In this document: positions 15,345-43,165 of the stretch, one piece after another
Layout: every line of letters starts with the position of its first letter
Position numbering within the stretch: the stretch's first letter is position 1
IMG/VR virus record: IMGVR_UViG_3300028805_000057
Coordinates: 83,895-147,894 of that record
From: a virus
Taxonomy: Duplodnaviria > Caudoviricetes
DNA length: 64,000 nt
Strand: one strand, 5' to 3'
The notes under the pieces: model-generated
The model's input: the letters and a program-made list of their open reading frames with translations, nothing else
Databases searched by the model: none
Told to the model about the DNA's origin: nothing
Position numbers and translations under genes: made by a program

Positions 15345-16064
15345 TTGAAATTTTTTATGATAGCATTTCGTGATTTAACAGGTCAAAAATTTAATATGTT
15401 AACCGTTCTTTACAGATATGAAATAGATGCTCCAAATGGAGATTCACGGTGGGTCTGCTCGTGTGAATGTGGCGGTACAACGATAGTAACTGCATCAAAT
15501 TTAATATATAATGGTGTTAAAAGCTGTGGATGTTTAAAAAGAACGAATCATTTTAAAATACATGGTGATTGGAATAGCAAACTTTATACTAGATGGCGAA
15601 GTATGATACGACGTTGTGAAGATCCCAATTTTCCATCTTATAATAATTATGGTGGTCGTGGTATACAAGTATGTCCAGAATGGCATAATTATGAAAATTT
15701 TAGAGATTGGGTAAATAGTACTCAAGATGATCCAAGTTTAACATTAGATAGAATTGATGTAAATGGTAATTATGAACCTAATAATTGTCGTTGGGCAACA
15801 CAAAAAACACAACAAAATAATAAAAGAAATAATATTTATGTAACATATTTTAACGAAACTCATTCATTAAAAGAATGGTGCGATATATTAAATTTACCAT
15901 ATGATCTAGTTTATCGTCGTATAAGTCGTTTAAATTATGATTTCTGGAGAGCAATTTCAACCCCTCTTCCTGACCATTATTATGAAGATTGTTATGACTA
16001 TGATTATTCAAATGAATATTATGAAGATCCATATGAATATGACAATTACATATATGATGAGTAA
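15345..16064 (+). CDS. HNH homing endonuclease
   Basis: DLTGQKF..LTV, CSCECG, KSCGC, YGGRGI.VC.EW, LTLDRIDVNGNYEPNNCRWAT..Q.NN motifs. Confidence 0.9.
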   Translation: MKFFMIAFRDLTGQKFNMLTVLYRYEIDAPNGDSRWVCSCECGGTTIVTASNLIYNGVKSCGCLKRTNHFKIHGDWNSKLYTRWRSMIRRCEDPNFPSYNNYGGRGIQVCPEWHNYENFRDWVNSTQDDPSLTLDRIDVNGNYEPNNCRWATQKTQQNNKRNNIYVTYFNETHSLKEWCDILNLPYDLVYRRISRLNYDFWRAISTPLPDHYYEDCYDYDYSNEYYEDPYEYDNYIYDE

Positions 16065-26676: not shown

Positions 26677-26949
26677 ATGAAAATGCCAAAACTTCCAGAC
26701 TCGGTATATAATTGGCTTAAGTGGATTTCGCTTATAGCTTTACCGTTGTTCTCAACTTTCTTATCTACGATTTTATCTGCTTTAAGTGTAGATCCAAACA
26801 CGATTAGAATAATTTGCACAATTTTAAATGCAACTGCGGCATTAATTGGCGGTTTAATTGGTGTTTCTACAATCAGATATAATCATGAAAAAGATGAAGC
26901 CAATAAGATATTCGAACAGCAGAATATCACAAATGGTGATACAAAATGA
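26677..26949 (+). CDS. Holin (Dp-1-like), copy 1
   Basis: VYNWLKWISLIALP, two hydrophobic helices, GLIGVST..YN; upstream of endolysin. Confidence 0.8.
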   Translation: MKMPKLPDSVYNWLKWISLIALPLFSTFLSTILSALSVDPNTIRIICTILNATAALIGGLIGVSTIRYNHEKDEANKIFEQQNITNGDTK

Positions 26950-27152: not shown

Positions 27153-27312
27153 AGAAGGTTGTTTATTGGCAGAAGATAAAATGTATGGTGTAATTTTACC
27201 AATCTTTAATGAAGATCCTAAGAATTGGGAGTTATTACCTAATTCTCCTTCTGTCAAAGATATTATTAAAGAAAGGGGAATCAGTAAGCATGAATATAAC
27301 ACCTCAACGTGA
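27064..27312 (+). CDS. Hypothetical protein
   Basis: AAGGAGG RBS before ATG 27064 (MTTLEVGKTYK...). Confidence 0.6.
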   Translation: MTTLEVGKTYKNIQSGRTVVILGRLDTLAKEGCLLAEDKMYGVILPIFNEDPKNWELLPNSPSVKDIIKERGISKHEYNTST

Positions 27313-28048
27313 TGCTAAGCCTTATTATGTCGAAGTGAGAGATAATCTTACGCAATATGTCTGGAATATGAATTATCCAACTATTATTACACAAGATACT
27401 ATCAATAAAGCATATAGAGATTGGTATCATAATACAAATGGTAATGTTGGTAAATATAACAAAGCATACTATGATAAGAAACTAAGAGAAGGAGAAGGTA
27501 AGCCTGGTAGTGACTGTTCTGGTATGCATTATGGATTAAGTGGCTATGATAAAACAGCACAGGGGTATTACGATGAATCACCAGAAGACAAAAAAGGAAC
27601 CATTGATAGTATTCCTATTCATGATCTGGTTATTTTGTACCGTGGTCAATCTAAAAGCAAAATAACTCATACTGGTATTTATCTTGGTAATGGAATGACA
27701 ATACATATGGCTAACTCTACTGATAATTGTATATATGAAACTACAGATGCAGGTAAATGGAAATGGTGGAGTTATGCTAAATTTATTGATTACTCCAAAC
27801 CATTAGGAGCAAAACCAATAATCACCAGAGTAATCAAAATAGGTAATAAAGGTATTGATGTTAAACTTTTACAAGACCAGTTAATTAAAAAAGGCTATGA
27901 TCCTGGAAAGATTGACGGTGATTTTGGTTCAAAAACCTATACTGCTCTTAAACATTTCCAAGCAGACAATAATATAGCTGTTGATGGTATTGCAGGAAAA
28001 CAAACTGTTAAATCTTTGGGGATGCTGTGGAGAGGCGGTTCTTATTAA
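27290..28048 (+). CDS. Endolysin: NlpC/P60 peptidase plus C-terminal peptidoglycan-binding domain
   Basis: SDCSG...HTGIYLG..TIH catalytic pattern; G.KG.DVKLLQ..L...GY..G.IDGDFG..T..AL..FQ......DGIAG PG-binding motif. Confidence 0.9.
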   Translation: MNITPQRDAKPYYVEVRDNLTQYVWNMNYPTIITQDTINKAYRDWYHNTNGNVGKYNKAYYDKKLREGEGKPGSDCSGMHYGLSGYDKTAQGYYDESPEDKKGTIDSIPIHDLVILYRGQSKSKITHTGIYLGNGMTIHMANSTDNCIYETTDAGKWKWWSYAKFIDYSKPLGAKPIITRVIKIGNKGIDVKLLQDQLIKKGYDPGKIDGDFGSKTYTALKHFQADNNIAVDGIAGKQTVKSLGMLWRGGSY

Positions 28049-28264: not shown

Positions 28265-28403
28265 AAATATTATGAACATAACCATGTAGAAAATCGCATG
28301 GGATTTATTCATAAATATTTACAAACAAATATTATGAACAGAACCATACCAAAAAACTGCATGGGATTTATTCATAAATATTTACAAACAAATATTATGA
28401 ACA
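28265..28403 (+). repeat. Tandem 62/63-bp hairpin repeat over a start codon
   Basis: aaatattatgaaca at 28265, 28327, 28390; gcatgggatttattcataaatatttacaaac twice. Confidence 0.9.
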
Positions 28404-29965
28404 GAATAATGTTTTATAATAAACTAGATAAGTTTAAGAAAAACCTAGAAGAAAAAAATAGTTTAGAACATAGATTTAGTGATCACGATGGTGTTGATAA
28501 TAAACTTGATACTAATGGAAATAGACCCAGAGAAGTTCATACGAATGAATATAAGGGCACTTTTAATAATACTAGACGTGGTAATTTATCTAGAGCAACT
28601 AAACCTAAGTCTAATTATGGACAGAGTTATTATACAAAGATTGATAAATATTATCCTGATGGTACTGCTAGATACTTCTATTCAAAAGATGAATATGAAG
28701 CATATCAAAATGGGCAGGTGAAAGGTAATAGTGCTAAACATCTTGATCAAATGATGAAAGAAACTGCTGAGAGAAAAGTTATCGAAGATAAAAAGAAACA
28801 ACAAGAAGAAATCTATAGAAAGAATAAAGAAGCAGATGAAGCAAGAGTTAAAGCAGAACAAGAAAAATATGCTAAATTACGTGCTGAAAATAACAAACAA
28901 AAACCTAAGACAAGAGAAGAAGCTGAAAAAGAAGCTATAAAAAGAGAACAAGAAAGAATAAGAAAAGCTGATATTGAAGCTAACAAGAAACCTGAAACTA
29001 AGGCACTTGAACAAGCTGAAGATGAATTAGTAAAACTTAAAGGAAAACAGAATCTTGCTAAGAATCGTGGTTTAGATGACAAAAACAATAAGAAAGAATA
29101 TGATAAGTTGACTAAAGAAATCGAAGCAAAAGAAAAAGAAATTGCTTCAATAAGAAAGAAGATGGCTGATGAAACATTAGCGAATAGAGATAAAGAAATT
29201 AAAGAAGCTACAAAAAGAGAGCAAGAAAGAATAGAAAAAGAAGCTACTGAGAAACTTGAAACTTGGAAAGAAAATATTAAAGATAATATCAATGATTATG
29301 CTCTTGAAGTATATGATAATATTAAGAGATGCGCAAATGATAGAGATGTTTCTTTTAATGTAGATAATCCATTTGTAGATTTATTTAAAGAAGCTCTTAA
29401 GAAATATGATCCAGACTTTGATGGAGATATCGCAGCATACGTGAGACCTTATCCTGGACAAAGTATTGCAGGTATACTTGGCAGTGAATTACTTAAAGAT
29501 GATAAACATACCAAGATTGCTAAGAAAGTTCTTAATGAATTAGAAGATAATTTAGATAAAACTATTGATAAATATACTATTAATGATGAACAATATGATG
29601 ATTTCTTAGATCATCTTAAAGGAAAACAGGAAAAGAATAAAACTGCAGCTATTGATAAAGAAATGGATAATGCAAGAAAATCACTTGAAGCAATGTATAA
29701 TGGTGATGAAAACAGTATTAATCTTGATAAATCTCTTAAGAAAGTACTTGAAACTAAACTTAAAGAAATTGACCCTGAATATGAAAAAGGTAATCTTTAT
29801 AAATATGTAAGACCTTATATTCTTGGTAAATGGTGGAAAGATGATGAATCATATGCTAAAGTTACGGAAGCTCTTAATGAACTTGAAAAAGAATTAAGAT
29901 CTGCAAATAAACATGATGATGCATATGGTGATTTTGTTGAAAAAGTTTCAAAAATACTTGCATGA
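28397..29965 (+). CDS. Leader-tagged coiled-coil protein (putative virion internal protein); start uncertain (28298/28334/28397)
   Basis: MNRIMFYNKL...SLEH leader; YYTKID...RYFYSKDEYEAY motif; K/E-rich helices. Confidence 0.7.
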   Translation: MNRIMFYNKLDKFKKNLEEKNSLEHRFSDHDGVDNKLDTNGNRPREVHTNEYKGTFNNTRRGNLSRATKPKSNYGQSYYTKIDKYYPDGTARYFYSKDEYEAYQNGQVKGNSAKHLDQMMKETAERKVIEDKKKQQEEIYRKNKEADEARVKAEQEKYAKLRAENNKQKPKTREEAEKEAIKREQERIRKADIEANKKPETKALEQAEDELVKLKGKQNLAKNRGLDDKNNKKEYDKLTKEIEAKEKEIASIRKKMADETLANRDKEIKEATKREQERIEKEATEKLETWKENIKDNINDYALEVYDNIKRCANDRDVSFNVDNPFVDLFKEALKKYDPDFDGDIAAYVRPYPGQSIAGILGSELLKDDKHTKIAKKVLNELEDNLDKTIDKYTINDEQYDDFLDHLKGKQEKNKTAAIDKEMDNARKSLEAMYNGDENSINLDKSLKKVLETKLKEIDPEYEKGNLYKYVRPYILGKWWKDDESYAKVTEALNELEKELRSANKHDDAYGDFVEKVSKILA

Positions 29966-29981
29966 AAGGAGAGTGATTAAG

Positions 29982-30251
29982 ATGGATACATCAAGTATTG
30001 CAGTAATTATTGTGGCATTAATCGGCGCAATAGCAACAATAACATCAAATATTGTAATGAACAACAAACAGTCAGCAGCAATGGATGCTAAGTTGGATAA
30101 GCAGCAAGGAATTATTGAAGAACGACTAAGTAATTTAAAAGAATCAGTCGATAAACATAATAACTTTGCTCAGAAAATCCCAGCAATCGAAGCAAATATT
30201 GAAAACATTGAAAAACGAATCGACAAATTAGAAAGTAAATTAATAAAGTAA
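29982..30251 (+). CDS. Membrane-anchored coiled-coil protein (XhlA/holin-like)
   Basis: AAAGGAG RBS; N-terminal hydrophobic helix, VDKHNN motif, coiled coil. Confidence 0.65.
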   Translation: MDTSSIAVIIVALIGAIATITSNIVMNNKQSAAMDAKLDKQQGIIEERLSNLKESVDKHNNFAQKIPAIEANIENIEKRIDKLESKLIK

Positions 30252-30264
30252 GGAAGGAGTCAAA

Positions 30265-30417
30265 ATGGATAGAAATACATTCTTTGATAATCTAAAAAGT
30301 TATAATGCTAACTCCTTACATAATAATATTACTAACAAACATGCTAGTAATAGATTCGAGTTTTATGATTCATTACAACACCATGGAATGAGAGGAAGTA
30401 AAAAGAAATCAAAATAG
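30265..30417 (+). CDS. 50-aa leader-only mini-gene (not in ORF track)
   Basis: AAGGAG RBS; MDRNTFFDNLKSYNANSLHNNITNKHASNRFEFYDSLQHHGMRGSKKKSK. Confidence 0.65.
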   Translation: MDRNTFFDNLKSYNANSLHNNITNKHASNRFEFYDSLQHHGMRGSKKKSK

Positions 30418-30431
30418 GGGGTTAAATAATC

Positions 30432-31313
30432 ATGGATAGTTTTGAATTTTATTATAATCTTGATTCATATAATAAAAACTCCTTGAGACATAAATCGGAG
30501 TCCTCTCTTAAAGGTACACAAAAAGAAAATGTTAAATACTTTAAGAGAGAAGGTACTCCTGGTAATTACAAATATTATTATACAAAAGAAGAATACGAAG
30601 CTTCTAAGAAACCTGAAAATAAAGTAGATGTTGTAACAAATGTTAAACCTACTTTACAAGCTAATAAAACTTTTAATAAGAAAAAGAAAGTATCTCATAA
30701 GTCATTATATACACCTATGCAACAAGCTAAGAAAATAAATAATGCTAAGATGAATAAACAATATGATAAGAAATTTGTAGATGTTGTACAAGGTAAAGAT
30801 AAAATGACATCTGAGGAAAGAGTAGAAGAATATAAAAACTATTTACAAGATCCTGAGAATTACAATGAAGATACATATATAGAAAACAGATTAACAAAAC
30901 TTGGTGAAGGTGGAAATGTTAATCTTAATCTTCGACCTGAGATTTCTACACAAGAATTAATAGATGCAAAATGGCCTGAAAAAGAAGTAGGCGAAGGATA
31001 CGCTACAGTATTTTCAAGTACATTTTCAAATGAAGGTGACACAGAATTTTATAACTTTACTCCGATTGTTATGGATCCTAAAACTGGTGAGTATCTTGGT
31101 TGTATGGATCCTGAAGAATTTAAACAGTATTGTTATGATGTAATTGATGGTATAAGAGAAGATGATAAGAATTGTCAAATAGGTGGAGCATTTACTGGTG
31201 AAAATGCAAAAGATTTGGCAGAAAAAGCAGCTATAGAAATTCATGATTTACATGAACAGCAACATGTTAATGAAGAGAATAAAAAGAAAAATAAATCAAA
31301 CAATTCAAAATGA
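30432..31313 (+). CDS. Leader-tagged protein with C-terminal GNVNLNLRP..ATVFS domain
   Basis: MDSFEFYYNL...SLRH leader; KYFKREG...KYYYTKEEYEA motif. Confidence 0.75.
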   Translation: MDSFEFYYNLDSYNKNSLRHKSESSLKGTQKENVKYFKREGTPGNYKYYYTKEEYEASKKPENKVDVVTNVKPTLQANKTFNKKKKVSHKSLYTPMQQAKKINNAKMNKQYDKKFVDVVQGKDKMTSEERVEEYKNYLQDPENYNEDTYIENRLTKLGEGGNVNLNLRPEISTQELIDAKWPEKEVGEGYATVFSSTFSNEGDTEFYNFTPIVMDPKTGEYLGCMDPEEFKQYCYDVIDGIREDDKNCQIGGAFTGENAKDLAEKAAIEIHDLHEQQHVNEENKKKNKSNNSK

Positions 31314-31331
31314 GGGGGTCCTGGTAAAAAT

Positions 31332-32249
31332 ATGTTACAAAAAGAATTCTATACAAAATTAGAAATGGCAAGACAAAAGCAGGACTCCTTACAACATCAT
31401 GGTATTAAAGGTCAGAAGTGGGGTGTAAGGCGTTTCCAGTATATGGATGGTTCTTACACCCAAGCTGGCCGTGAAAGATATGGTTATGGTCCTGCAAGAC
31501 AACCAAAACAAGAAGATGATAAAGTTGGTGTTATGATACCTATTCCTTCAGCTGCAGTTCCACCAATATTGGCTGCTGGTGCTGCTATTTTAGGAGTAGA
31601 ATTAGGATTATCTACAATAGGTGATGCTATACATAATGCTAAAGTTTCGAAAGATATTAAGAATTGGGAGGCAAATCGAGCAAAAGAAGAAACTGATCCT
31701 AAGACTGGTCTTAAACTTAAATCTGATCCAAATGCTTCTGTTAAAGATGATATGAAAATGATTAACAGAGAATATGGATATGGAATGTTTGCTAAGGCGA
31801 TTTGGGATATTGATTCAAAGAAATCAATGGGTCATACAGAAAATTGTATGCTTTGTACAACTGCTTTGGATCTTAAGAGAAGAGGATATGACGTTAAAGC
31901 CGGTTCAAGTAAAGATGGATACTATGCTAAAGATGTTGCTAATTGGTATAAAGAAAAGAAACAACCTACTATGGGCAAATTTAATAGCATTATAGAACAG
32001 CTTAATAAACAACCTGAAGGTTCTTATGGAAACTTTATGGTATACTGGAAAGAAGGCGGTGGGCATTCTATGTTTTACAGGATTGAAGGTGGTAAACCTG
32101 TAATATATGATGCTCAGTCTAACAAGAATTATACAATATATGAAATTTCAAATCATATAAATAATTCAATTCCAGGACATTGTTTCTTAAGAACAGATAA
32201 CTTAACACCGGATTACGATTATTTAAAGAAGAATAATATTATAGCCTGA
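31332..32249 (+). CDS. Leader + HHGIKGQKWGVRR domain + papain-fold toxin (glutamine deamidase-like), copy A
   Basis: NCMLCTTA..L.RRGYDV.A, GGHS, YDAQ, RTDNL: Cys-His-Asp pattern of Tox-PL family. Confidence 0.75.
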   Translation: MLQKEFYTKLEMARQKQDSLQHHGIKGQKWGVRRFQYMDGSYTQAGRERYGYGPARQPKQEDDKVGVMIPIPSAAVPPILAAGAAILGVELGLSTIGDAIHNAKVSKDIKNWEANRAKEETDPKTGLKLKSDPNASVKDDMKMINREYGYGMFAKAIWDIDSKKSMGHTENCMLCTTALDLKRRGYDVKAGSSKDGYYAKDVANWYKEKKQPTMGKFNSIIEQLNKQPEGSYGNFMVYWKEGGGHSMFYRIEGGKPVIYDAQSNKNYTIYEISNHINNSIPGHCFLRTDNLTPDYDYLKKNNIIA

Positions 32250-32375
32250 ACGAAGTAAAAAGCTCAGCCTGTGATTGATTTTGAGCAGGGTGGCATAGAA
32301 CGAATGTTTAGGATAAAGAATTTGGTTTTCAGAATGAAAAGCAATTATTATTGCATAGGAGGGTTCAAAATAAGT

Positions 32376-33977
32376 ATGAATAGATATGAATTCTATGGAA
32401 ATATTAATACATACAGAAAAAATCAATCAAATAAAGAAAATGAATTAACTCACTACGGAACTCTCGGTCAAAAATGGGGTGTTCGTAAGTGGCAGAACTA
32501 TGATGGTACTTTTAATGAGGCTGGTAAGGAAAGATATTTTGGAACTAAGAAAGCTAAAAATGAAGAAAAAATAAATTCAAAATATCAAAATAAAGATGGT
32601 TCTTTAACACAAGAATATATAAATAAAATTCAAAAATTAACTAATGAAGGTAAATTTGATGAAATTGAAAAACTTAAAAAACAAATAGATTTTGATAAAG
32701 TACAAGAATGGTCTAAGAAAACAAATCCGAATTTATATAAAATGCCAGATTTTAGTGATCCTTCAGAATATGAAGGAGATTTTGAATCATATGTTGAAGA
32801 TAATTGGGAAACTGCAGCTAAGAAAAGAGGGTTCGATCTTGATGATATTTTAACAGATGAACAATATGAAATAATTAATCAGGATATGAAGGATTATTTT
32901 AATAGTCATGAAGAAAAAATAGGTTCTGTCTTTAATAAAAATTTAAGTGAAGAAAAGAAAGATAAATTACGAGAAAAATTATATTCACGTGATAGTGAAA
33001 TGCTTACTATAGATCAATTATATGATGAAGATGAACAGAAATATTTATTAAATAAAAAAGTTTCTAAAAAAGTTAATAAATTAGTTGATTGTTTGACTAA
33101 AGGTGATTTTGATGAATATAATAAAATATTAGAAGATGTTGACCCAGAACATTTACAAACAGTAAAGAATGCTGCACAAGATTTAGCCAATACAAAACAA
33201 TTAAGAAATGTCGATACATCTAGATTAACTGAAGTTTCAAAAGATATTTTTGGAAATGATAATATATTAGGTGTTCAAAGTATTCTTGCAATGACAAATA
33301 GTGATGACATTAATGCACATTCATCAAATAGAGTGTATCCAGTAGATATACGACAGTCAATTATAGATAATAGTACTCTATTAAAAACTGCTATATTAGA
33401 ATATGAAAGAGGCTATAAAGATGGATACGAAAGAGATATACAAATTGCTTCTGGCGGTGATGAACGCCGTGCAAAATATATGAAACAGTTTGTTGATGAT
33501 GTCGAAGCTGTTAAAGAATACTCTAAAGATTCTAAAGAAATTAATGATGAATTACGTAAGTTAAAAACAAAAGAATCTTGTGACGATAAAGCTTTTATTA
33601 ATTATCATTATACAGAAGCTTTATATGATAATATGCGTAAATATATAAATGATGATTTTCCTGTAAGACTTAAAAAAGGAACAAATGATGCTAAGAAAAT
33701 GGTTAATAATCTTTATAAAAACTTTGAAAAATATTCAAAAGAATTTAAAGAAGATTTATATTATCAATTATTAGATTACTATGATGATGAATATATTTCA
33801 AAATCTGAATTTATGAAAGAAATAGGAAAAATCAATGCTGTTGAAATGTATGGTAATGGTAATATAACTTTTACTTATACAGTACCAGGTGAAATGGGAT
33901 ATGATATGGTTAATATAAATGGCAATATAAACGATAATGGGAAACTTACAATAGATGATGCTGATTTTATTGATTAA
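32376..33977 (+). CDS. Leader + HYGTLGQKWGVRK domain + helical region + DUF2262-like C-terminus, copy A
   Basis: AGGAGG RBS supports ATG 32376; paralog of 35515..37029. Confidence 0.7.
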   Translation: MNRYEFYGNINTYRKNQSNKENELTHYGTLGQKWGVRKWQNYDGTFNEAGKERYFGTKKAKNEEKINSKYQNKDGSLTQEYINKIQKLTNEGKFDEIEKLKKQIDFDKVQEWSKKTNPNLYKMPDFSDPSEYEGDFESYVEDNWETAAKKRGFDLDDILTDEQYEIINQDMKDYFNSHEEKIGSVFNKNLSEEKKDKLREKLYSRDSEMLTIDQLYDEDEQKYLLNKKVSKKVNKLVDCLTKGDFDEYNKILEDVDPEHLQTVKNAAQDLANTKQLRNVDTSRLTEVSKDIFGNDNILGVQSILAMTNSDDINAHSSNRVYPVDIRQSIIDNSTLLKTAILEYERGYKDGYERDIQIASGGDERRAKYMKQFVDDVEAVKEYSKDSKEINDELRKLKTKESCDDKAFINYHYTEALYDNMRKYINDDFPVRLKKGTNDAKKMVNNLYKNFEKYSKEFKEDLYYQLLDYYDDEYISKSEFMKEIGKINAVEMYGNGNITFTYTVPGEMGYDMVNINGNINDNGKLTIDDADFID

Positions 33978-34013
33978 AATTTTTTAAAAGAAAAATCAAA
34001 ATGGAGGAATATT

Positions 34014-34283
34014 ATGGGCAATGACTTAGTAGGTCAGGCTATTGAAGCTATGAAAAAATATAGACCTGAAAAAACAGTAATAAAGATTTGGAATAAAGGT
34101 AAGTCATGTCTTATACTTGCTGCAAAGAATCCTAAAGAATACCAAATGGAGATGGATCCTTATTATATATTTGCTGAGGGTGCTATCTCCGGTATCTCTT
34201 ATTTGGATAATGCTGTCAAGTTAAAAAAGATAATGAAACCAGAGTATATAGCATACACTCGAAAGGAGCTTGGAAATGAATAG
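34014..34283 (+). CDS. Small leaderless protein, candidate immunity protein A
   Basis: GGAGG RBS; KKY.P..VI.I...DPYY...G.I.G shared with 35237..35497. Confidence 0.6.
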   Translation: MGNDLVGQAIEAMKKYRPEKTVIKIWNKGKSCLILAAKNPKEYQMEMDPYYIFAEGAISGISYLDNAVKLKKIMKPEYIAYTRKELGNE

Positions 34284-34337
34284 CTATACTATACAAAAAG
34301 CGTATAGCAGATCCATTCATTATGAAAGGAGTAATAA

Positions 34338-35225
34338 ATGAATAGAATAGAGTTTTATTCAAGTTTAAATAAATATAAAGATATTCAAGAGAAATCTGAT
34401 AATGAATTAAAACACTATGGCATAAAAGACCAGAAATGGGGTGTAAGACGTTGGCAGAATCCTGATGGTACATTTAATGCTGAAGGTAAGTTAAGATATT
34501 TCGGTGCTCAGCCTAAAGAAGGTAGTGTAACTGCACTTGCTGGTGTATTTGCTCTTTGGGGTGCAGAATTAGCTTTGTTAGTTGGCGGACCAGTGACTGC
34601 ATATGCAATACAAGATGCTAAAACTACAAATAAAATAAAGAAATTTGAAGCAAATTTAGCAACAGAAAAAACAGATCCTGAAAGTGGATATAAATTAAAG
34701 AATGAAAAAATGTCTAAAAATACTACAAAAGAAGACATGTCATATGTAAATATGGAACAACAATATGCTGGTATGAAACAAAAGAATAGAGATGCTAAAG
34801 AAGGAACTAGTATGAATTGTTCTTTATGTACTACTGCAATGGTTCTTAGACAAAAAGGATATGATGTACGTGCTGGTAAGACTAAAGAAGGTACATCATA
34901 TCAAGAACAAGAAAAACGTTATAAAGGTGGCAAGTTTACATTAGGAACATTCAAAGATATTATAAAAGAACTCGAAAAACAACCTGAAGGTTCTTACGGA
35001 CATTTCTCTGTTGAATGGAGAGAAGCTTATGGTGGAGCTCATAGTATGTTTTATAAGATTGAGAACGGCAAACCTGTAATATATGATTGTCAAGTTAATC
35101 AAGTTGTTAAACCGAAAAATTTATATAAAAATGCTTCGCCTCTTGAAGATAAGACTAAGTTTATGAGATGTGATAATCTCGAAGTTAATTGGGATTATAT
35201 AAAAGAGAATAAACTTGTACACTAG
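34338..35225 (+). CDS. Leader + HYGIKDQKWGVRR domain + papain-fold toxin, copy B
   Basis: NCSLCTTA..L.QKGYDVRA, GAHS, YDCQ, RCDNL; paralog of 31332..32249. Confidence 0.75.
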   Translation: MNRIEFYSSLNKYKDIQEKSDNELKHYGIKDQKWGVRRWQNPDGTFNAEGKLRYFGAQPKEGSVTALAGVFALWGAELALLVGGPVTAYAIQDAKTTNKIKKFEANLATEKTDPESGYKLKNEKMSKNTTKEDMSYVNMEQQYAGMKQKNRDAKEGTSMNCSLCTTAMVLRQKGYDVRAGKTKEGTSYQEQEKRYKGGKFTLGTFKDIIKELEKQPEGSYGHFSVEWREAYGGAHSMFYKIENGKPVIYDCQVNQVVKPKNLYKNASPLEDKTKFMRCDNLEVNWDYIKENKLVH

Positions 35226-35236
35226 GAGGAAATAAT

Positions 35237-35497
35237 ATGAATATAATAGATGAAATTAAAGATGCTTTCAAAAAATATAATCCTGATTTATATGTAATAG
35301 CAATATTTATTGCAGAAAAAGATTTATATTTTGTAGTTGCAAAACATACTCCCGATAAAACAACAGTTGAAGAAGATCCTTTCTATATGTATGGAAATGG
35401 AAAAGTTACTGGTGTTACAATAACAGATTCTGAAGAAAGAATGAATAATGCATTTGAAATTATGCAAGCAAAGAATCGTATTTATGAAATTGATTGA
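35237..35497 (+). CDS. Small leaderless protein, candidate immunity protein B
   Basis: Directly downstream of toxin B; KKYNP..VIAI...DPFY...G.V.G. Confidence 0.6.
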   Translation: MNIIDEIKDAFKKYNPDLYVIAIFIAEKDLYFVVAKHTPDKTTVEEDPFYMYGNGKVTGVTITDSEERMNNAFEIMQAKNRIYEID

Positions 35498-35514
35498 AAG
35501 GAGGGAGTCTTCAA

Positions 35515-37029
35515 ATGAATAAAATAGAATTCTTAGCAAATATAGATAAATATAAAGGCGAAGATCATTCTACTTTCCTTCAGCATTACGGAATCTTAGG
35601 ACAAAAATGGGGACAGCGTAGATGGCAAAATCCTGATGGCACTTTTAATGAAGAAGGTAAGCAAAGATATTTTGGTCAGAAATCAAACAATATAAGTTCT
35701 GAAGAAAAGATTGGTGGTTATACTGCAGATCATTTTCACAAAAATATTTATTTAAAGACTGACAAGAATACTCTTAAGAAAATTAAGAAGTATCCTGATA
35801 TATATGATACAGAAGGTTTAACTGATGATGAAATATTAAAAGCTGTTAGACGTGTTCCTAAGATACCTAATGCTAGAGCATATGGTAGAGAAATTAGAGA
35901 AGAACTTTATAATACTCAATTGAATAAGACAAGATCTAAGTATTACGAGACAAATACTAAAGATATTCTTGAAGCTGAAGATGTTGAAGAGCAAAAGATT
36001 GGTGGTTGGACAGATCATGGTAAAAAGATTGATGAATTATATCCTAATGATAATGGACATTTATATAGTGATAATCTTTACACATCTGATGAACAAGAAT
36101 ATTTTATGAATGAAAAAAATGCTAATAGAATAAATAAAATGGCTAAGTATGCTATGGAAGGTAATACTAAAAAGTATGATAAATTAATGGATAAAATTGA
36201 TGACAAATATAAAGATACAGTAAGAAGAGCAGTTCTTGATATTGAAGATGGTATAGATAATAAAGCTAATAATAAAAAAGGCAGAGAACTTTCTAAAGAA
36301 ATAGGACTTGGAGAAGTTGATTTAAATGCAATATTAAGAAATCGATATAAAGATGATGAACGAATGTATTCAATTAAAGATCGTGATATGATTCGTAATA
36401 ATATGGATACTATAATGACAGCAGTTAAGAAACTTAAAAATCAAGATATTAATGGATATTATGATGAAGTTGAAAAGATAGCTCGTACTGGTGAAGATAA
36501 AGATACTATTGATAGATTTGTAGATGACTATATTAGTATTAAATCATATATTGATGAAGGTAAAAAACTAGATAAAGAATTAAAAAATATGAAAAATATT
36601 CAAAGTAAATGTAAATATCCAATTGATTATGATACAGACGCAAGAGACTTTATGTTCTCAGAATATACAAAAGACTATAGATCAATTCAAGAAAAGATGC
36701 AAGATCCTAAAATACATAGAGACGGACAAAAAGTTATTAATAATCTTAATAAAAACTTTGATAAATATGTTGATCAATTTAAAGATAAAGTTGTTGAAAA
36801 TCTTTATGAAGATTATAAAGATTGGCATGCTGATGATGACAAGATACTATCTAAACAGCAATTTAAGAATGCCATTGGTAAAGTAAATAGTGGTAGTATT
36901 GATGATACTGGATATTTACAATTATATCTTGAAGATAATGGTTTATTCTATGGACATGTATTTACAAGTCTTGGAGTTATAGATGATAACGGTAATCTTA
37001 AAGTTGAAGATGTATTCTTAGAAGGTTAA
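35515..37029 (+). CDS. Leader + HYGILGQKWGQRR domain + DUF2262-like C-terminus, copy B
   Basis: RBS supports ATG 35515; C-terminal DNGLFYGHVF..G.IDDNG......LEG resembles DUF2262. Confidence 0.7.
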   Translation: MNKIEFLANIDKYKGEDHSTFLQHYGILGQKWGQRRWQNPDGTFNEEGKQRYFGQKSNNISSEEKIGGYTADHFHKNIYLKTDKNTLKKIKKYPDIYDTEGLTDDEILKAVRRVPKIPNARAYGREIREELYNTQLNKTRSKYYETNTKDILEAEDVEEQKIGGWTDHGKKIDELYPNDNGHLYSDNLYTSDEQEYFMNEKNANRINKMAKYAMEGNTKKYDKLMDKIDDKYKDTVRRAVLDIEDGIDNKANNKKGRELSKEIGLGEVDLNAILRNRYKDDERMYSIKDRDMIRNNMDTIMTAVKKLKNQDINGYYDEVEKIARTGEDKDTIDRFVDDYISIKSYIDEGKKLDKELKNMKNIQSKCKYPIDYDTDARDFMFSEYTKDYRSIQEKMQDPKIHRDGQKVINNLNKNFDKYVDQFKDKVVENLYEDYKDWHADDDKILSKQQFKNAIGKVNSGSIDDTGYLQLYLEDNGLFYGHVFTSLGVIDDNGNLKVEDVFLEG

Positions 37030-37042
37030 GGGAGGACCCTAA

Positions 37043-39436
37043 ATGACTAACAAAGAAATTCATGAAATGATTAAAAAATATGAATCAAAATGGGGACGAC
37101 TTGGGCATACTAATATTATGAGACCTGAATTAAATCACTCAGGAGAAGAAGGAGGAACAACAATGTCAAGCATGACTAATGATTTAATAGCATTTAGACA
37201 GAAAGTTGCTGCAGGTAGAGAAGCTAATAGACTTGCTCATAAATCAACTGTCAATGTTACAGATATTAATAGAAGATATTTTGAAGAGATTACCACAAAT
37301 GGTACTTTGATACATGCTGGAACTAATCAGCAAAACTACAAATACTATCAGAAGATAGATCTTGGTAATGGTCAGTCAAGATATTTCTATACTAAGGAAG
37401 AATGGGACGCTTACCAGAATGAAAAGAATGGTAAGAAACAGTCTACCGGTGGCGCTGAGAAAGTTCGTCAGATGCATAATGAGAAAGAATCTAATCTCCA
37501 GGGCATGATTAAAGATGGCGATTACTATGAAAAAGGTGAAGATGGTAAATTCCATAAGACTGATAAGAAATGGGATGATGTTAGAAAGCAGGCCATTGAA
37601 GAAGCTGATAACAAGATAATTGATGCTGCTAAAGAAGGTGGATATGAAGCTGCTAAGAAAGCTATCTTTGATGATGATCGTATGCTTGAAATGTTTGGCC
37701 AGTTTGAAGGCGGATTTGAGAATCATGGCTGGGAGCTTAATGATGATGACTCGATTACTGGTATGGATGATAATGATGAAAAGTACTTCAAGGAAATGGA
37801 AACTTGGCTTCGTAGCTTCAAGGATTCTACCGGTATAGATATTTATAAGAATCCCGATTTCCAGAAGTCTGTAATGGATGAAATTCGTAAGAGATATAAT
37901 CTTATGAAGAATCAGGCTAAGGAAAGAGAATCAAAAATCGAAGGAACTAAGAAGTATGCTACTCCTGAAGGTGCTGGTAAGAAGTCTGAAGAGAAGAAAG
38001 AAGAGACCACTAAGTCTGAAGAGAAGAAAGAAGAGACCACTAAGACCGAAGAGAAGAAGACTGAATCTAATAGCGGATCAGACTTTGATAAGAAGTTGAA
38101 TGAAACCATTACAAATGAAGGTTCTGATGCCACAGCTGATTATATCATTAATAACTCACCTGAATTTAAGGCTTATGCAAATGCTCTTCGTAAGGCTGTT
38201 GCTGATGGCAAGATTAAAGTATATCGTGATGGCGGAATGACTGGTAAGGAAAATAAAGAACTTGCTAGCACATTTGATCCGTTACTCGAAGACCTTGATG
38301 CTTTATTACAGAAAGCTGCTAAGAATCCAGACTTTGATCGTAAGGGTGTTGAGAAGCTTATCAATAAGGAATTTGAGAATATTGCTGCAGCTGCAACAGA
38401 GGATAAATATGGTGTAAGAGACAATACTAAGAAGTTTGTAAAACATTCCTTAGAAGAGCCTGAAATCATGGATGAGTATTCAGCATTTATGGAAAGAGTT
38501 AAGAAGGGTAGAGAAAAGAATAAACTTGCTCATTCTATAATGATTTCTCCTTCTGATTTAAATGCTAGATACGAGCAGTCCATTAAAGATCATTGTTTCT
38601 TAATTCATAGTGGCAATTTCAAGTATTACAACAAGATTGACTTAGGTAATGGTAATACAAGATATTTCTATACTAAGGCCGAGTGGGATGCTTATCAGAG
38701 AGAAAAGGGTTCTAAGACTAATACTGATCAGAAGCTTTCCAAAGAAACTTTAAAGCAGATCGAACAGCAAAAGCAGAAGAAAGCAAACTATGATAATAAT
38801 GCTGAAGCTGCTAAACATGAAGGCGACAGATGGCAGAAGAAAGAAGAGCCTAAGCCTAAAGTTACTGTTGAAACAATTGTAGTTGATGTAAAGAAAGATC
38901 CTAATTTTACAAAAACTGTAGATACTGTTAAAGCAGCAATTGATAATGGAGATATATCATATGTATATGATAAGCCCATTGTTAATATTGATAAGAAAAC
39001 TGGTAAACTAAGTGAAGCTGGTATGAAAGCTAATGAAGCTTGGCAGAATCTCTATAAGTCATTTAATGATTTATCGTCAAAGAATAAAGAAAATGGTTTA
39101 TCATATGAAGATGTTAAAGGCGCTTTAATGGATGCTTTTAATTCTGAATTAAAGAAAGCTCAATCTTCAAATAAGTCTGGATCTGATGATAAGCCAAAAG
39201 ATTCAAATCCTGATAACTTAGGCTTTGATAAGATGAAAGAAGGAATGACTCAGGAAGAATTTAATAAGGCATTGAAGGATGCTAGAGATTCTATTGATTT
39301 CGATAAGATGACAAATGAGATATCCGAAGTTATCAATGACCAGTTCAAGAATGTGGATCAAAGCGTTCTTGATGGCATTAAAGATCAGGTAACAAAAGAA
39401 ACTGAAAAAATGTTAAAGAATAAATTAGGTTTCTAA
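37043..39436 (+). CDS. Internally duplicated LxH-rich polyprotein-like virion protein
   Basis: Two copies of AF..(K/R)V..GRE.N.LAH...LIH.G..KYY.KIDLGNG..RYFYTK.EWDAYQ; six (L/V)xH sites. Confidence 0.75.
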   Translation: MTNKEIHEMIKKYESKWGRLGHTNIMRPELNHSGEEGGTTMSSMTNDLIAFRQKVAAGREANRLAHKSTVNVTDINRRYFEEITTNGTLIHAGTNQQNYKYYQKIDLGNGQSRYFYTKEEWDAYQNEKNGKKQSTGGAEKVRQMHNEKESNLQGMIKDGDYYEKGEDGKFHKTDKKWDDVRKQAIEEADNKIIDAAKEGGYEAAKKAIFDDDRMLEMFGQFEGGFENHGWELNDDDSITGMDDNDEKYFKEMETWLRSFKDSTGIDIYKNPDFQKSVMDEIRKRYNLMKNQAKERESKIEGTKKYATPEGAGKKSEEKKEETTKSEEKKEETTKTEEKKTESNSGSDFDKKLNETITNEGSDATADYIINNSPEFKAYANALRKAVADGKIKVYRDGGMTGKENKELASTFDPLLEDLDALLQKAAKNPDFDRKGVEKLINKEFENIAAAATEDKYGVRDNTKKFVKHSLEEPEIMDEYSAFMERVKKGREKNKLAHSIMISPSDLNARYEQSIKDHCFLIHSGNFKYYNKIDLGNGNTRYFYTKAEWDAYQREKGSKTNTDQKLSKETLKQIEQQKQKKANYDNNAEAAKHEGDRWQKKEEPKPKVTVETIVVDVKKDPNFTKTVDTVKAAIDNGDISYVYDKPIVNIDKKTGKLSEAGMKANEAWQNLYKSFNDLSSKNKENGLSYEDVKGALMDAFNSELKKAQSSNKSGSDDKPKDSNPDNLGFDKMKEGMTQEEFNKALKDARDSIDFDKMTNEISEVINDQFKNVDQSVLDGIKDQVTKETEKMLKNKLGF
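37982..38059 (+). repeat. 30-bp coding tandem repeat (KSEEKKEETT x2.5)
   Basis: aagtctgaagagaagaaagaagagaccact twice plus partial. Confidence 0.9.
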
Positions 39437-39571: not shown

Positions 39572-42500
39572 ATGAAATGGAACTACGATGATTCTATAAG
39601 AGATGAATTTAGCAAGGGACCGCATAGAGATATTCTCATAGTTCCTCATGCTACATATGTTACTCCAGTATCTGGTGGGCCTCCTGAAATAAAATCTAAG
39701 GTCCCTCAGTATATGTGGATTCCAATGCCTGTACCGATATGGGATGCTAAGGAAAAGAAGATGACGATTGTTACAATCCAACAGCCTTTTCCTAAGAAAG
39801 ATCCAAGTACAGGTGAAGTATTAAGAGAAGATGTAGAGTGGGTTATCACGAATGATGATATTATTAAAGAAAAGTTTAAATATTCTCATTCACTTAATTC
39901 GGAATCCAACTTAACATTCTCTTCTTGTAATGCTGCAATGGTACAATTTACCATAAGAAATAAGAAACAATATATACAAGAATTAGATGAACAGGGCGAA
40001 CCTACAGGAGAATATTACTGGGAACAAGAAATACCAAATTTACAAAACTATGAATTTGTAGAGAAGGACCCTGATGGTAATAGTAGAAAGATAGTTGGTG
40101 AATTATCTGGTAATGCTTGTATTAAAGTCTATACATACATAAATGGTGACTCAAGTACATTAATGTATTTAGGAATGTTCCAAGTTGAAGAAGATAAGAT
40201 GGTTGATAATGGGTATAACCGTCAAATTACTGCATATGACTTCATGGCATTCTTCAGAGATTGCGACATATTCTATTGGTATAAGCATCTCTGGACAGGT
40301 ATAAATAAACTGGACAATGACTTTGAAGACTATACAAGTGATAGTGATGAAGAAAAGAAGAAACCTGATGATTATGATGCTGAAGTTAACTGGGTAAGAA
40401 AACCGGCAAAAGATTTATATCCAAATAGAGATGGTAGATGGACTATAGGTGAAGCATTAAGGGATCTATTTGAAAACTTTGCGGCTTATGATATGATTAC
40501 TTATGATGAGGAAGAAATCGAAGTAGAGGATCCGGATACTCATGAAAAGAAAAAAGTTAAGACAACTGTAGCAAAATTAGGTAATACCGTAACAAACCCA
40601 AATAACTATGGACGAAATTATGAAGAAGGAACTGGTTATACAGGATTAGGTATGCCTGTAATGTTAGATCCTGATTTATATGATAATACAAAAGAATATA
40701 GTATACCAACAGAACCAGGTGCAGATCAATATGAATGTTATGGTTACATGGATGCTTTAGATATTGAATTTTATCAAGATCCGAATATAATGAAGTCAGA
40801 ATCTTTAAGTATGGGCAAATTCCTTGAAGATATTGGATTATTAGCTGGTAGATATCCTTATATCAGAACTGATCACTTACAAGATGATGATTGGTTTGAT
40901 CCTGCAACTAAAACAGGAAATCAAAATAGATATAATAATTATGAGAAATGTATTTTAACATTTAAACCTCTACCATCAAGTAAAGATGATAGCAAATTAC
41001 CTACTGATCAAATGTTGGATAATACAGAAATCAGTAAAGGATTTAGTCATGAATCTTATACTGTTGATGATATTGAGATAGTTAAGATAAATTTCCAAGA
41101 TAAAAGTAAGATTGAATATTCAAGACTTACGGCAAGTCAGAGAAAAGATAAGAAAACAGGTAATGTACAAACATTTACTTTTAGTGATAATATATTTGTT
41201 TCATACCTTGTCGAAAAATCTGATAATGAAGAAATTAAAAAGAAATTAGAGAATTATAAAGCATTAAAATTAAAGATATTTGGTAAAAACAATAAAAAAG
41301 GTAATATGAGTTCTACAGCATTATTTGCACAGGGATATTACAATATGAAATATAGAAGTTATGTCCCTTATGAACTTACAACCTATGCAGACCCTGTACG
41401 AGATGTCGGTGATAGAATAAAGATAACTTATACCGATGTCATCACAGGAGAATATGTAAGCTTTTTCTCATATATTCTTGAACGAGAAATGAATGGTATT
41501 CAGAAATGCCTGGATACTTACAAAGCTCAAGGTGATGGTCTTAATCCAGTATTTAGTAATTACCAAAGCGGTTCAAAGTATCAAAGTGGTTCAAGTTATG
41601 CTGCAAGTTCTTTCGGTTATAATGCTGTATATAGTGGAACTGGTTCCGGTGGATCAAGTGGCTCTGGTGCATTAGGAATTACTCCAAGTGACTTAGTACA
41701 GTATTGGCGAAACTTTGGTATAAGACTCTTAGATGAACCTAGTGACTGTCAAGCGAAGTTTGTTAAGGGAAGTGAACAAGGAGATCCTACTGCAGAACAT
41801 TATATATACAATATAAGTGGTGGTGAAACTAGTAGTATTAAAGATGGTAATACTACTAATCCAATATTATATGAACCTGGTGATGGTACTGGTACAAAGG
41901 AAGCGACTGTAACTGCCGGTGATTATGTTGATTGGGTAGAAGATTATCAGCACGATGATCTGATAGTACCAAGTTTTATTGACTATCCTTTATATGTTTA
42001 TACATTAAATAGTGAATGGAAATATGTTGGTAATGGCTATACAATGGGAGATGGCGGTTGTAATTTTTATGATAGTTCTAATGCTGAAATTATATTAAGT
42101 GATGGAACTATTGTAGAAGATGATACTGATATTGAAGGTAAAGCAGATGATACTCTAATTATTAAATTAAAATCTGGAACTCCGTATTATAAATATAGAT
42201 ATACTAATACAAGTTTTTATAGATATGCATCTGAAGATTGGGGTTTACCTTATACTACAAAAGAAGAATTAACAACTTCTGCAAGTATAAAAGTTGAACC
42301 TGGTGATACTATATGGGGTGCCGGGCAATGGTATTGTATTTATCAATATCCAGGAGTATGGGTTATTGCAGGTCATTATCCACAACTAGATATTCCAGTA
42401 ACACAAACAACTAAAAAATACATCTCACTCAAATGGTCTGATCCTCAAGATATTATAGACTGGAAACCTACACCTGCAACATGGGAAGGTACAGTAATTG

Positions 42501-43165
42501 TAAGGAAAGAGAACTCAGCACCACTTCATAGATGGGACGGAGAAAAAGTTGTTCGTACTACTACAAGAGATAAGTATAAGACTAAAGCATATAAAGATGA
42601 AGATATTAAAGCAAATAAAGTATATTACTATGGATTCTTTCCATATTATACAAAGATTGCCGATCCTGATCATCCTATAAGATTTTATACATTCACTAAG
42701 TCTATTAGAGTTGAGACTGGTATAGTTGCTCATCCTGCGACGATTACTAATTTGATAGTTTCTCATTTGGAGATTACTGTAGTATATGAAATACCATCTA
42801 TTGCTGCTGGAGTAAAATATAAATCAGTTACATTAGTTGGTAAAAAGAATGAAGCACCGGTTGACGAAACTGATGGTGATATTATTTTACCATTGGAGGA
42901 ATCATCTACTCAAGCAGTTATTGATGGTCTTGAACAAACTACAAGATATTACTTTATAATATTCTCTAAGGATACTGATGATGTTGTAGTATCATCTAAT
43001 TGTATGGATGCTATGACTACATATCCTCCAAAGATATTTGCTGAGATTATAGAAACTAGAAATGATCCTTATGATAGTGATTTCTTTACAGAGAGTATAG
43101 AAGCTGTTGGAATGCCATCAGAAAGTAATTTCTTTACTGAAATTATTAATGTTACACAAGGATAA
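39572..43165 (+). CDS. Tail-tip/baseplate hub protein with FN3-like domains, paralog 1
   Basis: LGMFQVEED..RQITAYDF, YVPY.L...DP.RDVGDRI, YILER...G....DTY.A.G hub motifs; LKWSDP...W.GT.IVRKE...YYYGFFPY FN3-like domain. Confidence 0.7.
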   Translation: MKWNYDDSIRDEFSKGPHRDILIVPHATYVTPVSGGPPEIKSKVPQYMWIPMPVPIWDAKEKKMTIVTIQQPFPKKDPSTGEVLREDVEWVITNDDIIKEKFKYSHSLNSESNLTFSSCNAAMVQFTIRNKKQYIQELDEQGEPTGEYYWEQEIPNLQNYEFVEKDPDGNSRKIVGELSGNACIKVYTYINGDSSTLMYLGMFQVEEDKMVDNGYNRQITAYDFMAFFRDCDIFYWYKHLWTGINKLDNDFEDYTSDSDEEKKKPDDYDAEVNWVRKPAKDLYPNRDGRWTIGEALRDLFENFAAYDMITYDEEEIEVEDPDTHEKKKVKTTVAKLGNTVTNPNNYGRNYEEGTGYTGLGMPVMLDPDLYDNTKEYSIPTEPGADQYECYGYMDALDIEFYQDPNIMKSESLSMGKFLEDIGLLAGRYPYIRTDHLQDDDWFDPATKTGNQNRYNNYEKCILTFKPLPSSKDDSKLPTDQMLDNTEISKGFSHESYTVDDIEIVKINFQDKSKIEYSRLTASQRKDKKTGNVQTFTFSDNIFVSYLVEKSDNEEIKKKLENYKALKLKIFGKNNKKGNMSSTALFAQGYYNMKYRSYVPYELTTYADPVRDVGDRIKITYTDVITGEYVSFFSYILEREMNGIQKCLDTYKAQGDGLNPVFSNYQSGSKYQSGSSYAASSFGYNAVYSGTGSGGSSGSGALGITPSDLVQYWRNFGIRLLDEPSDCQAKFVKGSEQGDPTAEHYIYNISGGETSSIKDGNTTNPILYEPGDGTGTKEATVTAGDYVDWVEDYQHDDLIVPSFIDYPLYVYTLNSEWKYVGNGYTMGDGGCNFYDSSNAEIILSDGTIVEDDTDIEGKADDTLIIKLKSGTPYYKYRYTNTSFYRYASEDWGLPYTTKEELTTSASIKVEPGDTIWGAGQWYCIYQYPGVWVIAGHYPQLDIPVTQTTKKYISLKWSDPQDIIDWKPTPATWEGTVIVRKENSAPLHRWDGEKVVRTTTRDKYKTKAYKDEDIKANKVYYYGFFPYYTKIADPDHPIRFYTFTKSIRVETGIVAHPATITNLIVSHLEITVVYEIPSIAAGVKYKSVTLVGKKNEAPVDETDGDIILPLEESSTQAVIDGLEQTTRYYFIIFSKDTDDVVVSSNCMDAMTTYPPKIFAEIIETRNDPYDSDFFTESIEAVGMPSESNFFTEIINVTQG

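Follow-up and report, generated by a model that had tools for sequence, protein, structure and literature searches.

The loci for the internal proteins of bacteriophage T4 are hypervariable, and the assemblin protease of herpesviruses cuts at V/L-x-Ala↓Ser (the arrow marks the cut, also in the putative sites given below). MuF-type phage polymorphic toxins were reportedly treated by Jamet et al. in BMC Biology in 2017, and polyvalent proteins of phages and conjugative elements are said to have been described by Iyer et al. in J Bacteriol in the same year. The T4 proteins IPI-III and Alt have a capsid targeting sequence (CTS), are incorporated into the head core, trimmed by gp21 at a hydrophobic-x-P1 motif and injected (PMC3012670), and in the giant phages phiKZ and SPN3US the prohead protease cuts ejection proteins at A/S/G-x-Glu (PMC5694885, PMC10052503). 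Here we analyze an array of genes at positions 28397-39436 of a 64,000-nucleotide window, which comprises bases 83895-147894 of the complete 147,894-bp IMG/VR virus record IMGVR_UViG_3300028805_000057. A first-pass annotation, made by a model from the letters alone, had proposed that these genes share an N-terminal leader ending in L-x-His, followed by one of two short modules and then by variable cargo. L-x-His and the module behind it are called the tag here. Comparison of sequences suggests that the tag is probably part of a T4-like code for capsid loading and maturation whose site, specific for His, would be new, and that the tagged proteins are cargo of the phage head. The design as such is known already, both from capsid-targeted, protease-trimmed internal proteins and from phage polymorphic toxins. 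The novel elements would be the tag, the His-specific site, the context of a fused protease-capsid protein, a tagged RNA polymerase, the polyprotein build and the size of the array. The phage is a 148-kb siphovirus of a lineage that includes Lactococcus phage 1706, Faecalibacterium phage FP_oengus and many actinobacteriophages; the lineage is marked by a gene for a prohead-protease/capsid fusion and a YonO-like single-subunit RNA polymerase, and was previously described on other grounds (bioRxiv 10.1101/842583).

All seven N-termini that the first-pass annotation had quoted were found, in genes within 28397-37029 that start at 28397, 30265, 30432, 31332, 32376, 34338 and 35515 (array genes are named by their start positions for simplicity). 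The leaders are 19-26 residues long and end in L-x-His, the His being residue 25, 19 (and 39), 20, 22, 26, 26 and 24 in gene order. A GGAGG-type ribosome-binding site lies 6-10 nt before the ATG in six of the seven genes and is absent at 28397. Throughout the genome (148 kb), hydrophobic-x-H-[YH]-G near the N-terminus is confined to array genes, two terminase-adjacent genes and the RNA polymerase gene, and a pattern so restricted excludes chance as an explanation of the tag. Eight tagged genes lie in the window and three upstream of it; in cultured relatives a genome holds about three copies of the tag (582 places in 203 records).

The first of the two modules had been called DUF7211-like in the first-pass annotation. 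This assignment was correct: the Pfam profile PF23847 (25 positions, cut-off 27 bits) gave 29.4 bits for 31332, 21.4 for 32376, 25.5 for 34338 and 26.0 for 35515. When the whole genome was searched, the scores of the same four proteins were 33.1, 26.0, 27.6 and 30.4 bits, and the product of the gene at genome position 76540 reached 33.4 bits, which places the module in the family. The profile covers L-x-H-[HY]-G-x-x-G-x-K-W-G-x-R-R, its positions 5-22 aligning to QDSLQHHGIKGQKWGVRR. Since L-x-H is included, the motif belongs to a catalogued domain of unknown function, and the notion of a new tag motif had to be given up in favor of Pfam DUF7211. PF23847 had no match in 28397, 30432 and 37043, where the second module is present instead (twice in 37043). 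This module proved real as well, its KYYxKID...RYFYTKxEWDAYQ hairpin aligning across seven units. The papers that could be searched contain no mention of DUF7211, DUF2262 or the KWGVR/GMKWG motif in this sense, and neither a megablast of the array nor a tblastn of the second module against phage records returned a match. In a metagenomic protein of 3,071 aa (P0019) the second half of the tag profile (DG..G..RYF) was matched 33 times; because of this repetition that half is perhaps a generic beta-hairpin repeat, comparable to cell-wall-binding repeats.

As the first-pass annotation had proposed, capsid and portal proteins were examined for L-x-H sites. The capsid gene, upstream of the window, encodes an 803-aa protein in which, within a single reading frame, an acidic spacer connects an N-terminal protease domain to a C-terminal HK97-type capsid domain (phrog_3270, E=1e-194; the protease part matches phrog_3270 and phrog_80). 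Pfam gave no match at E up to 0.01 for this protein; homologues at 47-84% identity carry both PF04586 (Peptidase_S78) and PF05065, and SEA-PHAGES labels them 'major capsid and protease fusion protein'. The spacer (residues 126-365) holds 11 His, mostly in the form hydrophobic-x-His: nine have L, I, V, M or F two residues before (p=7e-6 vs spacer composition), and behind nine the next residue is Ser or Ala. The first site, VLAH↓A, lies at the end of the protease domain and the last, MAH↓SADYGIDNIDYLFP, just before the capsid core. In an AlphaFold2 (AF2) model of the fusion the predicted local distance difference test score (pLDDT) is below 50 at residues 114-177 and 202-340, i.e. over most of the spacer and most of the sites. 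The pattern was then followed through 118 fusion homologues (47-100% identity) with 970 spacer His. L, I, V, M or F stands two residues before 91% of them, as against 19.6% in the spacer composition, and S, A, G or N follows 93%; for His outside the spacer the values are 48% with a hydrophobic residue two before and 11% with S or A after. His133 and His363, one at each end of the spacer, are invariant in all 118 homologues. The same pattern is present in gp20 of Gordonia phage Secretariat, gp26 of Rhodococcus phage ReqiPoco6, 1706 orf10 and several metagenomic phages. By these statistics, the motif that closes the leader is also the motif of the fusion spacer, as in a T4-type system.

We read hydrophobic-x-His as a cleavage code because it recurs in a disordered spacer, marks both ends of this spacer and precedes cargo domains, as the gp21 motif (L/I-x-Glu) does in T4 and the protease motifs do in giant phages. 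The T4 internal proteins are alike in that varied cargo has only a short N-terminal signal in common and that the motif at the leader end is found in scaffold and capsid proteins, too. They differ in several respects: the protease here is of the HK97/S78 type and fused to the capsid protein instead of being gp21, the putative cut residue is His and not Glu, a conserved handle of 20-30 residues would not be removed from the cargo, tags often lie inside the protein and in several copies, and the phage is a siphovirus of Gram-positive hosts without sequence homology to the T4 CTS or gp21. Assemblin has a related protease fold, a hydrophobic residue three positions before the cut and Ser after it, and frees the scaffold from the protease, but the residue at its cut is Ala, whereas it would be His here. 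A capsid-protease fusion is also mentioned in a paper on an Arthrobacter phage, which gives no cleavage sites.

In the portal protein, hydrophobic-x-His-[AS] is conserved at residue 9-10 of the N-terminus in all five lineages examined, i.e. this phage, Secretariat, ReqiPoco6, 1706 and one metagenomic phage. The portal gene of this phage lies at genome 80058-81407 (L007 14058-15407). In all five the conserved stretch is hydrophobic-x-His-[AS]-[WY]-N at residues 8-12, which may be a further maturation site. A complex prediction with the protease domain (fusion residues 1-135) and the first 60 residues of 34338 scored 0.01 vs a mark of 0.32, which speaks neither for nor against binding. The leader was also considered as a mimic of a spacer helix (VFDSMTDAQK...); this idea was rejected, as a profile of the helix built from 86 distinct sequences matched only the fusion among 329 ORFs (open reading frames) of the phage.

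A search with the tag profile, likewise proposed in the first-pass annotation, retrieved 26,987 cluster representatives from 1.84 billion proteins. Among the best 150 of these representatives there are 309 module copies, and in every one of them the His and an L or I two residues before it are present (100% each). The design of one leader in front of one cargo does not hold for many family members, in which the tag is often internal (188 of the 309 copies) and repeated (2-5 copies in 120 of the 150 proteins), so that these proteins are to be seen as polyproteins. The gene of one of them, P0001, has a truncated ORF on its upstream side and the portal gene on the other, with a gene for a protease-capsid fusion behind the portal gene. 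Among the His outside the modules of tagged proteins, hydrophobic-x-H-[SAGN] accounts for 12.3%, against 5.7% expected (p=4e-18), the value for early proteins of this phage being 3.7%. The polyvalent proteins mentioned above are alike in being large, multi-domain, codelivered with DNA, equipped with several anti-host enzymes and sometimes cut after delivery; the differences are that here the same putative cleavage tag stands before each domain and that many cargos are encoded by single genes.

The breadth of the family bears on the claim that the leader directs packaging, which has become doubtful. In relatives the part before the His has a median length of 12 residues and can be as short as 6 (MSSLAH), and strong conservation sets in after the His. 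Given leaders this short in relatives, and a conserved part that comes after the His and would not be removed from the cargo, it is improbable that the leader acts as loading signal.

Of 50,697 phage records that were screened, 203 have the tag, 244 the fusion and 250 the polymerase; the host genera are the same for all three. The tag is restricted to phages with the fusion capsid gene. Where the second module occurs in other viral contigs, the protein likewise begins with a short leader closed by hydrophobic-x-His, and the fusion was present in four of five such genomes. The polymerase of this phage is itself tagged. It is a 974-aa protein of the YonO/QDE-1 type with helix-turn-helix domains at both ends (genome 70101-73025; L007 4101-7025), assigned by phrog_4291 (E=0 over residues 20-972) and PF05183 (23.9 bits, cut-off 23.8), and its N-terminus consists of a leader, SLQH↓YGTPRHSGRYPWGSG and the handle variant YG..R.SGRYPWGSG. 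The polymerases of ReqiPoco6 (DDYLAH↓YG), 1706 (DDSLQH↓YG) and Secretariat are tagged, too. In ReqiPoco6, six genes for DUF7211 proteins stand in a row between the terminase and portal genes, each product starting with approximately xxDNFLAH↓YGVKGMKWG. In Secretariat gp15 a GNAT domain and a Gln_amidase domain each have a tag in front of them, two in all. Secretariat gp12 (L008 5953-7653) and ReqiPoco6 gp15 (L009 14111-15727) carry a 2H-phosphoesterase-like domain (two H-x-T; weak Pfam matches) followed by an internal DUF7211 tag, and could be packaged enzymes acting on cyclic nucleotide or RNA signals. The 1706 protein orf7 has two DUF7211 modules and is called 'structural protein' in its database record, and the ReqiPoco6 record names 1706 gp75, the polymerase, a structural protein; these labels are indirect support for packaging of tagged proteins. 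Giant phages are alike in that many proteins inside the head, virion RNA polymerase subunits among them, are cut at a motif of three residues that the capsid protein has as well; motif, protease lineage and virion type are different, and those phages are without a conserved handle or an array of swappable cargo.

The cargo of the array was compared next with the polymorphic toxins to which the first-pass annotation had likened it. All array genes lie on the + strand. Gene 31332 (31332..32249, 305 aa; SLQH with His22, codon 31395-31397) and gene 34338 (34338..35225, 295 aa; ELKH with His26, codon 34413-34415) each encode a leader, DUF7211, a hydrophobic segment after the tag and a Gln_amidase papain-fold toxin domain (PF15644 above cut-off, E=3.1e-8 and E=1.2e-7). 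The catalytic Cys, His and Asp are conserved in both (NC, GHS, YDxQ), and the two are predicted to be intact papain-fold glutamine-deamidase toxins; the other cargos of the array have no toxin assignment. Two small untagged proteins accompany them. The 86-aa product of 35237..35497, which begins 11 nt behind 34338 and directly follows it, is a candidate cognate immunity protein, and the 89-aa product of 34014..34283, separated from 31332 by one gene, is a candidate for an immunity protein against, or an inhibitor of, a Gln_amidase toxin. They are 28% identical to each other. The product of 34014 is 80% identical to that of L012 13712-13969 in a 135.7-kb relative, which in turn matches gp16 of Gordonia phage Secretariat, the gene directly after the Gln_amidase gene gp15. 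Neither partner matched a known immunity family in Pfam or NCBIfam; a Gln_amidase gene with a small ORF is the usual layout of a toxin-immunity pair, and on this ground they are regarded as candidates.

In the 135.7-kb relative (L012) the array occupies the same place after the endolysin with a different gene set, and its gene 13974 joins the second module to Gln_amidase. From these two observations we conclude that, in the manner of polymorphic toxins, tags and cargos are shuffled. The comparison with polymorphic toxin systems in the sense of Zhang et al. (2012) and the design of a constant tag with variable cargo stood up: the same Gln_amidase is found behind either module (DUF7211 in 31332 and 34338, the second module in 13974 of L012), unrelated C-termini follow the same tag, the immunity-like partners are conserved and the array differs between relatives. 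The description of the cargo as unrelated was right only in part. The products of 28397 and 37043 share nothing but the module; 31332 and 34338 are paralogues (40% identity), and so are 32376 and 35515 (29% over 555 columns), both of which end in DUF2262. MuF toxins are similar in having a head-associated N-terminal domain with variable C-terminal toxins, downstream immunity genes and Gram-positive phages as carriers. As the first-pass annotation had held, the tag differs from theirs: the Phage_Mu_F domain gave no Pfam match at E up to 0.1 in the ten array proteins, the tag here is a 25-residue motif with a leader, whereas theirs is a folded domain with at least about 100 residues, and MuF toxins have no link to a protease site or an RNA polymerase. 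NCBIfam gave no match for nine of the ten array proteins and a single sub-threshold, composition-type TolA match for 28397.

The remaining genes of the array are varied. Gene 28397 (28397..29965, 522 aa; SLEH with His25, codon 28469-28471) has a leader and a YYTKID...RYFYSKDEYEAYQ module, behind which come a Lys/Glu-rich coiled coil and a C-terminal repeated domain, the sole Pfam match being coiled-coil-like. It is followed by an untagged gene for a small membrane/coiled-coil protein (29979..30251; phrog_1863) that breaks up the array; its product is 93% identical to that of the ORF directly after the endolysin gene in L012, and because of this position 28397 looks inserted between the endolysin gene and 29979. 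A 50-aa leader-only remnant is encoded at 30265..30417, with tandem leaders NSLH (His19) and SLQH (His39), a truncated DUF7211 start (HGMRGS) and a stop. The same double leader is in frame with cargo of the 30432 type in a metagenomic homologue (P0284), and the comparison suggests recombination at the tag. Gene 30432 itself (30432..31313, 293 aa; SLRH with His20, codon 30489-30491) has a leader and a KYFKREG..YKYYYTKEEYEA hairpin, and its cargo contains a conserved GGNVNLNLRPEI...NFTPI domain. Its AF2 model has the leader helix at 3-15, the hairpin at 38-49 and the cargo at 90-290 (block-mean pLDDT mostly 84-93). Against the PDB, Foldseek found nothing for the cargo model at E<=0.001 and VIA-align reached at best Z 4.3, over helices only, which does not imply a novel fold; a search of the ESM Atlas gave no usable match.

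Genes 32376 (32376..33977, 533 aa; ELTH with His26, codon 32451-32453) and 35515 (35515..37029, 504 aa; FLQH with His24, codon 35584-35586) both have a leader and DUF7211. In 32376 about 470 aa of cargo follow, and in 35515 a conserved region at 56-170 is followed by a variable C-terminus that ends in DUF2262 (PF10020, E=2e-7); homologues of 35515 have the N-terminal 170 residues in common and diverge beyond them. For gene 37043 (37043..39436, 797 aa) a looser version of the leader had been claimed, and it was found as ELNH at residues 29-32 (His32), together with two internal leader-like units that make the protein polyprotein-like. Each unit consists of a leader-like helix, RLAH (His66) or KLAH (His497), TLIH (His91) or FLIH (His522), and YYxKIDLGNG..RYFYTKxEWDAYQ, and both align with the N-terminal leaders of other array genes. 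The array as a whole is an enlarged, recombining late-gene cassette.

In the mechanism that we propose, hydrophobic-x-His would be the cleavage code of the lineage's S78-type prohead protease, an enzyme that would face the side chains at the cut and three residues before it, as with L/I-x-Glu in T4 and V/L-x-Ala↓Ser in herpesviruses. Tagged proteins would join the assembling procapsid, with the conserved handle behind the His as the likelier point of docking. During maturation the protease would strip the leaders, cut multi-tag proteins into single cargos and degrade the spacer, and the cargo, including the tagged RNA polymerase, would exit the head with the DNA and act in the newly infected cell, while the small partner proteins would keep the toxins harmless in the producing cell. 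A wider version of this proposal extends a His-specific (hydrophobic-x-His↓small) S78 protease code over a lineage spanning Actinobacteria and Firmicutes, with DUF7211 as universal cargo handle and with injection of the phage's own RNA polymerase and of recombining toxins and anti-defence enzymes, many of them as polyproteins cut apart by the head protease; we give this version slightly less than an even chance.

Several points weigh against a head-cargo code. We infer cleavage after the His, presence in the virion and injection solely from sequence, and the 'structural protein' labels of 1706 are database annotations. To our knowledge, a His-specific serine prohead protease is without precedent. 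Shared descent alone may account for the joint occurrence of tag, fusion and polymerase, and since most family cargo has no recognizable function (a few members have cell-wall-binding CW_7 repeats), the word effector is established for the deamidase type alone. The residue after the His in DUF7211 is H (.66), Y (.16), W (.08) or F (.07), followed by an invariant Gly, where spacer sites have S, A, G or N; because of this difference the DUF7211 site is perhaps cut poorly, elsewhere or not at all. The main rival builds on the same bulky residue and invariant Gly, as well as on about 20 residues after the His that are conserved far beyond the need of a simple cleavage site. It takes the tag as an uncut docking or pseudo-substrate motif, in which L-x-H-[HY]-G..G.KWG.RR binds the protease or spacer of the fusion, or the portal, and loads cargo or regulates the protease, only spacer sites with a small residue after the His being cut. 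We consider such a non-cleaved docking role unlikely: behind the His of second-module proteins the residue is small, as in the spacer (LQH↓S, LSH↓A, LAH↓S, LIH↓S/A), the internal tags repeated before each cargo domain are more easily explained as cut points, and additional hydrophobic-x-H-[SAGN] sites are enriched in tagged proteins.

Tagged proteins might also be packaged but serve mainly as structural or ejection parts, forming a head core or a membrane conduit for the DNA like the ejection proteins of P22 and T7, with the array as an adaptation to the host envelope. The hydrophobic segments after the tag in 31332, 34338, Secretariat gp15 and ReqiPoco6 gp20/21 would fit such a role, as would the long Lys/Glu-rich coiled coils of 28397 and 37043, the lack of enzyme domains in most cargo and the database label of 1706 orf7; intact Gln_amidase, GNAT acetyltransferase and 2H phosphoesterase domains, a tagged RNA polymerase and immunity-like partner genes do not, and copy number and content vary among close relatives in a way unusual for essential structural parts, so this explanation appears more doubtful still than the docking role. 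Least credible to us is that the proteins are not packaged and that the N-terminus is a tag for secretion, membrane targeting, regulated degradation or timing, its likeness to the spacer being a coincidence specific to the lineage. The array does adjoin lysis genes, CW_7 repeats do occur in the family and the virion evidence for this phage is only indirect, but the RNA polymerase is tagged in all lineages examined, tagged genes of relatives stand between terminase and portal genes, the two-tag 1706 protein is annotated (by database label) as a virion protein, and the match between tag and spacer motif covers three positions and holds across 118 fusions. Cleavage by the host protease Prp at an L27-type motif was rejected since the motif is different; as far as we know, Actinobacteria are without a Prp/L27-type system. 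A type VII secretion signal was rejected as well, being incompatible with a tagged RNA polymerase.

If the head-cargo code is real, a large domain of unknown function would gain a function, proteins carried in the head could be recognized by a readable rule, and a prohead protease would have an unusual preference for His. Widespread siphoviruses would then inject their own RNA polymerase together with swappable effectors, in a group that includes dairy Lactococcus phages, gut Faecalibacterium phages and hundreds of cultured actinobacteriophages. The tag rule could also be used, like the T4 signal, to fill phage heads with foreign proteins.

The genes of the phage are nearly all on the + strand. 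Upstream of the window the order is RNA polymerase, HNH endonuclease (the second HNH gene, genome 74055-74603, upstream of the terminase gene), a 451-aa DUF7211 protein, the connector, a 578-aa DUF7211 protein, large terminase, portal and the 803-aa fusion; tagged genes stand on either side of the connector gene, close before the terminase gene. The window begins with tail genes, among them one for a 2,538-aa tape measure protein. The major tail protein is encoded by tandem paralogues (phrog_2645; window 734-1432 and 1451-2233), a doubling likewise seen in Secretariat (gp23, gp25) and ReqiPoco6, and an HNH endonuclease gene lies within the tail block (15345-16064). The holin gene (26677-26949) and the endolysin gene (27209-28048) precede the array. 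Behind it stand three genes for paralogous proteins of about 1,200-1,300 aa (phrog_18190; 39572-43165, 44424-48281 and 48362-52264), which by analogy with the multiple tail fibre genes of ReqiPoco6 may be host-recognition proteins. Directly upstream of 28397, at window 28265-28410, there are three repeat copies 62-63 nt apart, with CGC...TAAATA and the ATGAACAGA start, and these may represent the duplication of a phage promoter whose 5' leader is very short.

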